From UHGV virus genome UHGV-0164982: a stretch of DNA of 64,000 nucleotides, one strand, 5' to 3'. Below are positions 58,681 to 60,040 of the stretch, one piece after another. The notes below the pieces were generated by a model. It worked only from the letters and a program-made list of their open reading frames with translations. It was not told where the DNA came from and searched no databases. A program made the translations under genes and the position numbers. The DNA is from a virus. Position 1 is the first letter of the stretch, and each line of letters opens with the position of its first letter.

Positions 58681-58694
58681 CCAAATTTAAATCT

Positions 58695-59087
58695 ATGAAT
58701 TACACTAAAGCAGTATCCACATCAAAAATATATGATTTTTGGGATACAAGTGATAACATTGTTGGGCGTATAGAGGAGCACAATATGACTAATTATCATT
58801 GCATGCCAGACCTCAGCCCGGAAGAGATTCGTAAGATCTCTGAAGCAGCCGTGGCGAGTGTCGCTGCAAAAAAAATAGTCACTAACAGCAAGCATATAAC
58901 TAAAAGTGCATCTTTAGCTGGAAAAGTGATGGCTAAACAGGCAGACGTTATCAAGAAACTGTCTGGCACAGGTTCTTCTGCCATTAAAATTAATAAAGCA
59001 TTTACGGACAGTGTACTTACGCAAAGCAAAAGTCGAAAATATTTTCAAGAAGCTTTCATACAAGTTCGTAAAACCATCAAGGTTTGA
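58695..59087 (+). CDS. AT-rich moron gene 1
   Basis: 130 aa, Lys/Ser-rich, abrupt drop in GC after baseplate operon; followed by terminator. Confidence 0.5.
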   Translation: MNYTKAVSTSKIYDFWDTSDNIVGRIEEHNMTNYHCMPDLSPEEIRKISEAAVASVAAKKIVTNSKHITKSASLAGKVMAKQADVIKKLSGTGSSAIKINKAFTDSVLTQSKSRKYFQEAFIQVRKTIKV

Positions 59088-59110
59088 TGCTTTCATAAAA
59101 CATGATTAAT

Positions 59111-59138
59111 GCCCCTTATCGGGGCTTTTTTTTGTTTG
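59111..59138 (+). terminator. intrinsic terminator
   Basis: GCCCC-TTATC-GGGGC followed by TTTTTTTT. Confidence 0.75.
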
Positions 59139-59145
59139 GTGCGCA

Positions 59146-59847
59146 ATGATTGAACAGCAAAAGCAATGGGTGTTTACTGAATTAGTAAAAGACCCCAATA
59201 ACATCGAGCAACTAATTTCATACACGATTTACAAAGGTTTCAAAAATGAAATAGCCGATAATGCTCGTAAGATGGGCAAGACTGAAGATGAGATCAATGA
59301 GGAGTTAGCAAAATATCACAACTATTGCATTAGTTCTCAAAAGCAATTAGATGTTTTTAGAGATAAAGCTAAAAACACTCTTGACGCTTATATTTTCACC
59401 GCTAACCATAACATGACGAAACGGTTTAATGCGGAAATTATTAAAATAAAAAACCACTATGATAAAGAACTTGAACTAGCGCAAAAAAAGTTAAAAATTG
59501 CCGAAAAAAAAGCATTAAATAAGCTGTCCAAAGGTGCGGTTCTCTACAGCCAAAAAATTAAAGAGCCAGAGCATCTCTGGGATAAAATCCTTGATTTATT
59601 GTGGAGACTTATGAAGTTTCTGTTCTCTGGCGTACCTAAACTTTTTGCTACTGCATTTTCTGTTGGTCTAATGTTCACAATTTATACAGCTTTCGACGAA
59701 GATGCCACGACAGGTCTGAGAAAAGGGCTATATAAAATTGTTGATATGACTGTACCAGGAAAAGATATTCACGAAACCACAGATAATATAACCAATAGTG
59801 GCACAGAAAAAACGTCATCTTCAAATTCCCAAGCGCAGCAAGGATAG
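59146..59847 (+). CDS. AT-rich moron gene 2 (soluble N-domain plus C-terminal TM helix)
   Basis: 233 aa; hydrophobic FLFSGVPKLFATAFSVGLMFTIYTAF segment near C-terminus. Confidence 0.5.
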   Translation: MIEQQKQWVFTELVKDPNNIEQLISYTIYKGFKNEIADNARKMGKTEDEINEELAKYHNYCISSQKQLDVFRDKAKNTLDAYIFTANHNMTKRFNAEIIKIKNHYDKELELAQKKLKIAEKKALNKLSKGAVLYSQKIKEPEHLWDKILDLLWRLMKFLFSGVPKLFATAFSVGLMFTIYTAFDEDATTGLRKGLYKIVDMTVPGKDIHETTDNITNSGTEKTSSSNSQAQQG

Positions 59848-60040
59848 GTGATGTTATAAGCCGCGCAGTGATTTCGGCGCGGCAAACGTCTCAATCATCG
59901 TTCCCGCGATTGCCGACCAGGTGTGACACTGGACCTTTTCAGCATTTTTCACGCGATCAACGCGAGCAATAACCTCATCCCAATCAATCCGCGACTTGAT
60001 AACCATATGGTTCACCAAATCCAGGCGATCCGGCGGAAGG

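Follow-up and report, generated by a model that had tools for sequence, protein, structure and literature searches.

Several described systems resemble the subject of this analysis, a two-gene cassette (genes A and B) within a stretch of 64,000 nucleotides (nt) of the UHGV virus genome UHGV-0164982 (the window), which belongs to a P1-like (IncY) phage-plasmid. The RexA/RexB abortive-infection system of phage lambda is likewise prophage-borne and combines a soluble protein, encoded by the upstream gene, with an inner-membrane effector encoded downstream, as is predicted for B. The stoichiometry of both Rex proteins matters and the proposed outcome of their action is a loss of membrane integrity. 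Nevertheless, no sequence or fold similarity to RexAB was found in PADLOC or Pfam; RexB has four transmembrane (TM) helices and RexA 279 amino acids (aa), whereas B has one predicted TM helix plus a coiled coil and A has 100 aa; and the RexA/RexB ratio involves a second promoter, whereas that of A and B would depend on an internal terminator.

The exclusion proteins T4 Imm, P22 SieA and SieB, HK97 gp15 and P1 Sim are comparable in that they are small, membrane-associated prophage cargo that, like A-B, often lies close to tail genes and differs between related phages, but they are single genes without an obligatory cytoplasmic partner, whereas A-B is a pair that also occurs on integrative and conjugative elements (ICEs), plasmids and chromosomal islands. 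Type II toxin-antitoxin systems such as phd-doc of P1 share with the cassette an operon of two genes that begins with the putative inhibitor, as well as mobility and fast evolution; they differ in that B is a 233-aa, putatively tail-anchored protein and in that a conserved terminator separates A and B. Rousset et al. reportedly described old, tin and Z/fun in 2022 as defence hotspots of P2-like phages; the cassette resembles such hotspots and morons in being an AT-rich insert that parts two genes which are neighbours in related phages, and a P2-like prophage harbours one distant homologue behind its tail-fibre genes. Finally, residues 20-71 of B show weak, borderline matches to two components of the PADLOC candidate PDC-M64 (PDC-M64B, E 0.002; PDC-M64C, E 0.0095); this candidate, itself unvalidated, is absent among the 25 families listed for 79 B homologues. 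Judged by sequence, A and B are without detectable relatives in characterised systems, while the logic of a cargo pair made of a soluble partner and a membrane effector is familiar. We tentatively consider the cassette a mobile two-gene conflict module, most likely a defence of the toxin or abortive-infection type with B as its dose-limited membrane effector, and put the probability of this reading at about 0.45.

Expression of the gene pair

The coordinates of the features are collected in Table 1. Genes A and B lie on the same strand, 58 nt apart, and were always paired in the loci examined; a small, basic, A-like gene precedes B in every one of these, down to 28% identity in B. The pair reads as a single transcription unit in which A is translated from a strong Shine-Dalgarno sequence. 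The first-pass annotation had proposed genes of 130 and 233 aa. Both open reading frames (ORFs) are present (the first at 58695-59087; both are listed in RefSeq as hypothetical proteins, WP_052265823.1 for the A ORF, with the 130-aa model, and WP_069723417.1 for the B ORF), but the first is better read as a protein of 100 aa. The homologues of A (99-110 aa) all start at the equivalent of Met31 of the 130-aa ORF, N-terminal extensions upstream of Met31 are not conserved between alleles, and a Shine-Dalgarno sequence of the GAGGAG/GGAGG type stands at an equal distance from the ATG in the homologous loci displayed. The start of the homologues and the position of the Shine-Dalgarno sequence therefore make 100 aa the most likely length.

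Table 1. Features of the cassette and of its flanks (positions in the window)
Feature	Position	Strand	Remarks
Whole cassette	58662-59860		1,199 nt, no P1 counterpart; GC content 0.363 (whole window 0.472)
Shine-Dalgarno sequence of gene A	58773-58778	+	GAGGAG, 6 nt before the ATG; read from the sequence
Gene A	58785-59087	+	100 aa, isoelectric point 10.1, basic, without hydrophobic segment
Hairpin resembling an intrinsic terminator	59111-59133	+	GCCCC-TTATC-GGGGC + T8, between A and B
Shine-Dalgarno sequence of gene B	59138-59141	+	GGTG, right after the T-run; TGGTG conserved in intergenic alignment
Gene B	59146-59847	+	233 aa, predicted tail-anchored membrane protein
Codons of the TM helix of B	59623-59697	+	Residues ~160-184; motif FSGVPKLFATAFS
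Gene 5 (baseplate/spike, gpV-like OB domain)	58048-58680	+	Matches to Phage_base_V and phrog_430
dbn (glycosyltransferase) remnant, right flank	59854-60369	-	Truncated, frame-broken 3' part
Nuclease gene	60579-61514	-	AT-rich, 311 aa, predicted pPIWI/Argonaute-associated

The strong intrinsic terminator that had been noted between the two genes is kept, as a hairpin with a T-run, in 13 of the 14 homologous loci, where 0.4 would be expected from shuffled sequences. MAFFT misregistered the stems and the hairpins were therefore scored locus by locus. The stems show compensatory changes (e.g. GCGCTCC/GGAGCGC versus GCGCCCC/GGGGCGC) and are located 14-23 nt from the ATG of B in the 13 loci that have them. 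In the window the T-run ends 12 nt before this ATG, with the Shine-Dalgarno sequence in between, which leaves no room for the promoter of its own that had been suggested for B; the sole promoter-like match upstream of B (58963-58990) precedes the hairpin. As there is no promoter space between T-run and ATG, B must, by the arrangement of these elements, be expressed via terminator read-through, and A would then be made in excess over B, a stoichiometry that is itself inferred. The conservation of the attenuator suggests that B may be harmful in excess. No known RNA family was recovered within the cassette from Rfam. A distant Klebsiella clade (loci L035, L036 and L038) keeps the Shine-Dalgarno sequence before B and a weaker version of the hairpin; the upstream partner counts just 58 aa there (L036 8767-8943) and resembles A solely in its C-terminal ending (...AFEAASSAIK-like).

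Upstream of A, a sigma-70-like element (ATGCAA-N17-TAGACT) is conserved in other alleles. Matrices of P1 sites revealed no C1 operator or Lpa late promoter inside the cassette; the same matrices recovered the known sites in the window (O26 at 53840 and LP26 at 53881). The C1-operator-like sequence AATGCTTTATTAATTTT inside A (58986-59002, minus strand) scores 16.9 and is probably an AT-rich chance match: 14 of the 15 annotated P1 operators score 18.7-27.0, the other one having been extracted out of register. Because no terminator-like site separates the end of gene 5 from A (58680-58785), late LP26 transcripts can reach A, which suggests that the cassette can be transcribed late in the P1-like lytic cycle too.

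Two small co-transcribed genes, with a putative inhibitor first and in excess, are also what a pure addiction module would look like, in which a labile antitoxin A and a membrane toxin B stabilise their carrier and have no dedicated anti-phage role. The occurrence of the pair on plasmids, phage-plasmids, ICEs and islands (in one case immediately behind ccdAB) agrees with this, as does the predicted disorder of much of A, which is a property of many antitoxins. We nonetheless hold a pure addiction module to be improbable, as searches in Pfam, NCBIfam, PADLOC and the PDB gave no similarity to toxin-antitoxin families, type II systems do not usually place an intrinsic terminator between antitoxin and toxin, P1-like elements already have phd-doc, and just ~4-5% of the P1-like plasmids keep the module.

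The encoded proteins

The N-terminal helical domain of B (residues ~8-95) is strongly conserved and predicted to be cytoplasmic. Four of its residues are invariant throughout the family (Y26, Y29, K30 and K33) and A37 is nearly so; by their spacing these residues lie on one face of helix 20-42. They are followed by a coiled-coil helix of ~70 residues (65-137), an amphipathic helix (142-160) and the single C-terminal TM helix that had been noted at first reading and that both hydropathy (Kyte-Doolittle 1.3-1.5 over residues 155-184) and the AlphaFold2 (AF2) model (helix 166-183) support. The predicted local distance difference test score (pLDDT) of this model exceeds 90 for residues ~11-130. 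The TM helix contains small-xxx-small motifs and G162 is nearly invariant in the family. The ~50 residues past it comprise a short conserved juxtamembrane helix and a disordered tail, which are predicted to be periplasmic. The protein has no signal peptide and carries positive charges at the N-terminal side of the TM helix, and a tail-anchored topology with the N-terminus inside is therefore predicted.

This topology would give B the membrane location that is expected of an exclusion protein, and the cassette could accordingly serve superinfection or entry exclusion, one of the two roles that the first-pass annotation had named, in which inner-membrane B blocks the entry of related phage or conjugative DNA and A is accessory or regulatory. 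Such a role would suit the position of the putatively single-pass B in cargo slots after the tail genes of P1-like, P2-like and lambdoid prophages, the presence of the pair inside or beside conjugative transfer clusters, the short conserved periplasmic juxtamembrane helix, and the divergence of alleles in near-identical backbones, which would fit competition among related elements. Yet ~160 of the 233 residues of B, including its most conserved face, are predicted to be cytoplasmic, and a short, largely disordered portion would face the periplasm. Moreover, Imm, SieA, HK97 gp15 and Sim are typically single genes whereas partner and attenuator are conserved here, the pair also occurs in chromosomal defence islands without phage or transfer genes, and no homology to exclusion proteins, including Pfam SieB, was found in Pfam, among annotated PHROGs or in the PDB. 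We regard exclusion as rather unlikely; the obligatory cytoplasmic partner, the conservation in the cytoplasmic parts of B and the conserved attenuator, which hints at a B that does harm in excess, would favour abortive infection over it.

Protein A is conserved in an N-terminal helix (P-x-L-S-P-E-E-I-R-K-I-S...) and in a C-terminal helix (...L-[ST]-Q-S-x-x-R-x-Y-x-Q-x-[AS]-F-x-x-V-R-K-T), with a variable, low-complexity region in the middle. Its AF2 model contains four weak helices at a pLDDT of 51, a value too poor for a structure search, and A is probably largely disordered according to this model. The word-index search for homologues of A yielded 2 proteins only; its homologues were therefore drawn from loci containing B. 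Protein A gave no match in profile searches of Pfam, NCBIfam, PADLOC or the PDB, and a family scan of 16 of its homologues showed no recurring family beyond coiled-coil noise.

As had been concluded at first reading, neither protein can be assigned to a family by Pfam, NCBIfam or PADLOC; the sole family matches of A and B are PHROGs of unknown function (phrog_34496 and phrog_25194). The B family comprises 33 close homologues and 212 representatives (exhaustive profile search, clustering at 50%), nearly all of 180-250 aa, which speaks for real genes under selection. An alignment of 79 sequences was dropped as too diverse for the search of related loci, for which a closer alignment worked. The 79 diverse homologues of B shared no recurring Pfam or PADLOC family beyond coiled-coil noise, the recurring PADLOC matches being the coiled-coil proteins LeoBC, JetC, LmuB and ZorA. 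The scan with profiles of known defence systems (PADLOC-DB v2.0.0) gave no match for A and matches with E 0.002-0.01 only for B, profile searches of the PDB with three alignments returned nothing significant, and fold searches with B gave generic helical matches only. In the published literature, neither the accessions of the cassette proteins nor the PHROG identifiers are mentioned.

The genomic slot and its occupation

The window shares ~97% identity with P1 to the left and to the right of the cassette, and contains nine segments without a match to P1 (local blastn against the complete P1 genome). The LP26 late operon of P1 (26-25-7-24-6-5) ends with gene 5, and 46 bp, within which lies a bidirectional terminator hairpin, separate this gene from the convergent dbn. 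In the window this spacer is replaced by the cassette and the distance between gene 5 and dbn is 1,199 bp. The first-pass annotation was right in placing the insert directly after a baseplate spike gene (P1 gp5, with a Phage_base_V OB domain) and in its sharp drop of guanine-plus-cytosine (GC) content at the end of the baseplate operon: this content is ~0.52 at 58350-58649, 0.34-0.40 across 58650-59850 and ~0.49 thereafter. To the left, the cassette begins within the final ~7 codons of gene 5; to the right, it ends at the stop codon of dbn. The gp5 of the window is 95% identical to that of P1 overall and 76% in its C-terminal block, and the 3' end of gene 5 forms the recombination boundary of the cassette. 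Homology to P1 restarts at 59861 and ends at 60369; the dbn ORF fragments count just 54 and 80 aa. In Escherichia albertii plasmids the same cassette stands beside intact dbn and ban.

The gene 5/dbn junction lies outside the eight variable regions that were described for P1-like elements (PMC9603915). Whether the slot varies among these elements had been put forward as a check, and it does: the junction is empty, as in P1, in 442 plasmids and occupied in 25, namely 17 with the allele of the window and 8 with a second allele. Homologues of B were found in 28 of the 659 plasmids that carry a gp5 homologue, and the cassette in 14 of 5,426 complete E. coli genomes. It is missing from all 18 phage records that were checked (P1, P7, SJ46, RCS47 and 14 more) and none of the INPHARED phage records matches it at the DNA level. 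Positions 57000-61600 of the window are identical in several plasmids, including pNT1F10-94k, from pig, chicken and human isolates; some of the accessions with this identical region (e.g. KX518745 and MH781719) we take to be mcr-1 plasmids. A general hotspot at the junction was considered and rejected, as nearly all occupied sites hold alleles of the A-B module.

More divergent P1-like elements hold the pair at the same slot. In the E. coli P1-like contig L014, gp25, gp7, gp24 and gp6 are 99.2-99.6% identical to those of the window, and A and B ~49%. Its gp5 is a mosaic, with ~90 N-terminal aa of the P1 type and a remainder of the type found in locus L011, so this allele arrived by recombination with a crossover within gene 5. 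When the window was compared with the E. albertii allele, the ratio of nonsynonymous to synonymous codon changes was 11:6 for A and B together versus 7:28 for four tail genes (Fisher p=0.004).

Intact copies were also found in ICEs, conjugative plasmids, a chromosomal island and lambdoid and P2-like prophages. In several of these a C-terminal remnant of gene 5 is preserved directly upstream of A: 92 aa in the Pantoea chromosomal island, 62 aa in the Dickeya ICE, 27 aa in Cronobacter lambdoid prophages and 26 aa in the Pantoea ICE. These remnants indicate that, for the clade that bears them, the P1-like slot was the source and the other elements the recipients. The cassette had been called a moron. 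An accessory AT-rich insert it is, lying between otherwise adjacent genes and deviating in GC content; the imported origin that the term implies is contradicted, for the clade with gene 5 remnants, by these remnants beside copies elsewhere. As to a promoter and terminator of its own, the promoter-like element upstream of A, conserved in other alleles, is weak in that of the window, and the only terminator-like site stands between A and B, with none after B.

An accessory role in the structure or assembly of a P1-type baseplate or tail would be compatible with the location of the pair, which follows gene 5 immediately, reads in the same direction as the late tail operon and is not set off from it by a terminator. 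The pair is however missing from P1, P7 and ~95% of the P1-like plasmids, it persists intact on conjugative plasmids and ICEs as well as in a chromosomal island and in prophages of the siphovirus type, and its divergence by far outpaces that of the tail genes. Its spread to non-P1 elements, in which it remains intact, excludes a structural role in the tail, and this explanation, extremely improbable in our judgement, is effectively refuted; conservation of the pair in all P1-like phages, which the first-pass annotation had named as speaking against its reading, is not seen.

Genomic neighbourhoods and proposed function

In five independent contexts the pair is located among defence genes. Its neighbours are PifA, AbiH, a TIR-like effector and a type I restriction-modification system in the Pantoea chromosomal island; Shango SngA/SngB, ccdAB and ArdC in the Dickeya ICE; Mokosh MkoC on a Klebsiella F-type plasmid; Lamassu LmuA/LmuB and ArdC in the Rahnella chromosome; and the predicted pPIWI/Argonaute-associated nuclease (Aga_Nuclease) in the window. 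The ArdC-type genes (ArdcN + MPTase-PolyVal) are found at 5224-6168 of the Dickeya locus (L007) and 2983-4032 of the Rahnella locus (L018). Further copies stand behind the tail-fibre genes in a P2-like prophage, as cargo of a 90-kb viral contig and in an ICE transfer cluster. Such defence neighbours are the standard guilt-by-association signature of conflict systems and fit the defence, exclusion or abortive-infection class.

We propose the following mechanism for a conflict module of the toxin or abortive-infection type. Protein A would be made in excess over B, and B would reside in the inner membrane with its N-terminus inside, held by the single C-terminal helix, where it may oligomerise through its coiled coil. 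The basic, soluble A would bind the conserved cytoplasmic domain of B and either keep B inactive, like an antitoxin, or sense an invader. An infecting phage or mobile element would then upset A or the A:B balance, upon which B would compromise the membrane and the infection would abort. Through its coiled coil plus hydrophobic segment, B has a weak resemblance to alpha-helical pore-formers, in the form of non-significant matches (YaxA, E 0.009; AopB, 0.025; colicins A and B); no significant sequence or fold match to a pore-forming domain (ClyA/YaxA, colicins, type III secretion system translocators) was found.

Several points weigh against this proposal. None of the validated defence, toxin or exclusion proteins is a homologue of A or B, and the supplements of DefensePredictor contain neither of the accessions of the cassette proteins. 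Toxicity of B and its binding by A are only inferred, and the A model has a pLDDT of 51. Association with defence islands is also seen for toxin-antitoxin systems, anti-defence genes and other cargo, and in two unrelated loci ArdC anti-restriction genes are found within ~1.5-3 kb of the pair. The promoter-like element upstream of A is weak in the allele of the window and clear elsewhere. The substitutions on which the codon comparison relies are few, and 5 of the 9 changes in B cluster at residues 146-155, a cluster that could be a small recombination tract.

A more specific version holds that the cassette represents a new abortive-infection family, in which a lethal, tail-anchored and pore-forming B is gated by transcription, and that originated in P1-like phage-plasmids and was exported widely to ICEs, plasmids, prophages and chromosomal defence islands. 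Here the terminator would keep B nearly silent, and infection-induced read-through or the loss of a labile A would switch it on. In this full form the idea is improbable.

The pair might alternatively be another kind of cargo that does not kill, such as a membrane-tethered regulator pair of the anti-sigma type, a modifier of envelope or stress functions, or an anti-defence factor. Membrane anti-sigma factors have a topology similar to that predicted for B; being small and basic, A could bind nucleic acid; the promoter-like element in front of A is overlapped by palindromes or repeats; and anti-defence genes occur both near the module (ArdC) and elsewhere in the window (a Tad2-like gene). Against this stand the absence of a recognisable DNA-binding or sigma domain in A (Pfam and PDB searches) and of a conserved target gene that accompanies the pair across its contexts, and we think such a role unlikely, on a par with addiction.

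If the cassette of A and B is protective against phages or other mobile elements, it constitutes a compact defence family of ~1.1 kb without homology to known systems and with an unusual design, in which an internal terminator doses the membrane effector. Whatever the function of A-B, the gene 5 remnants form a rare directional record of gene flow, from a phage-plasmid to ICEs, prophages and a chromosomal defence island. Phage-plasmids have been proposed as hubs of genetic exchange (PMC10879196), a role that this record supports.

Other features of the window

The gene of the predicted nuclease matches pP_pnuc_1 (1.5e-34), pP_pnuc_2 (2.1e-33) and PADLOC Aga_Nuclease (1.2e-62), and stands in the place of P1 ban (encoding a DnaB-like helicase) and the 5' part of dbn. 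No Argonaute gene adjoins it. A functional linkage of nuclease and cassette was rejected, since either occurs without the other in plasmids. The window lacks ban, and the element therefore presumably depends on the DnaB of its host.

The segments without a P1 match contain several further genes. A block of 4.4 kb (43400-47804) takes the place of ~84.6-85.2 kb of P1, a position that closely follows pap and overlaps pmgT. Its products include an Ead/Ea22-like and a DUF4752 protein, and several of its ORFs have no family. A 707-bp insert at 8036-8742 has a GC content of 0.307, and its 144-aa ORF (8203-8637) gave no significant family match. An ORF of 281 aa (9538-10383, minus strand), partly located in the non-P1 segment 9528-10211, encodes a C-terminal Tad2-like domain (PF11195, 2.5e-22); Tad2 stands for Thoeris anti-defence 2. 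Two genes for TnpB of the IS605 family (OrfB/Cas12f-like) lie in non-P1 segments, at 12008-13216 (plus strand) and 62359-63534 (minus strand). A match to the Rfam family tmRNA_permuted (62265-62368, minus strand) that stays below threshold (32 bits against a gathering score of 47) overlaps the second gene at its 3' end and extends into the adjoining downstream sequence; this stretch may be the guide-RNA region of the second TnpB.

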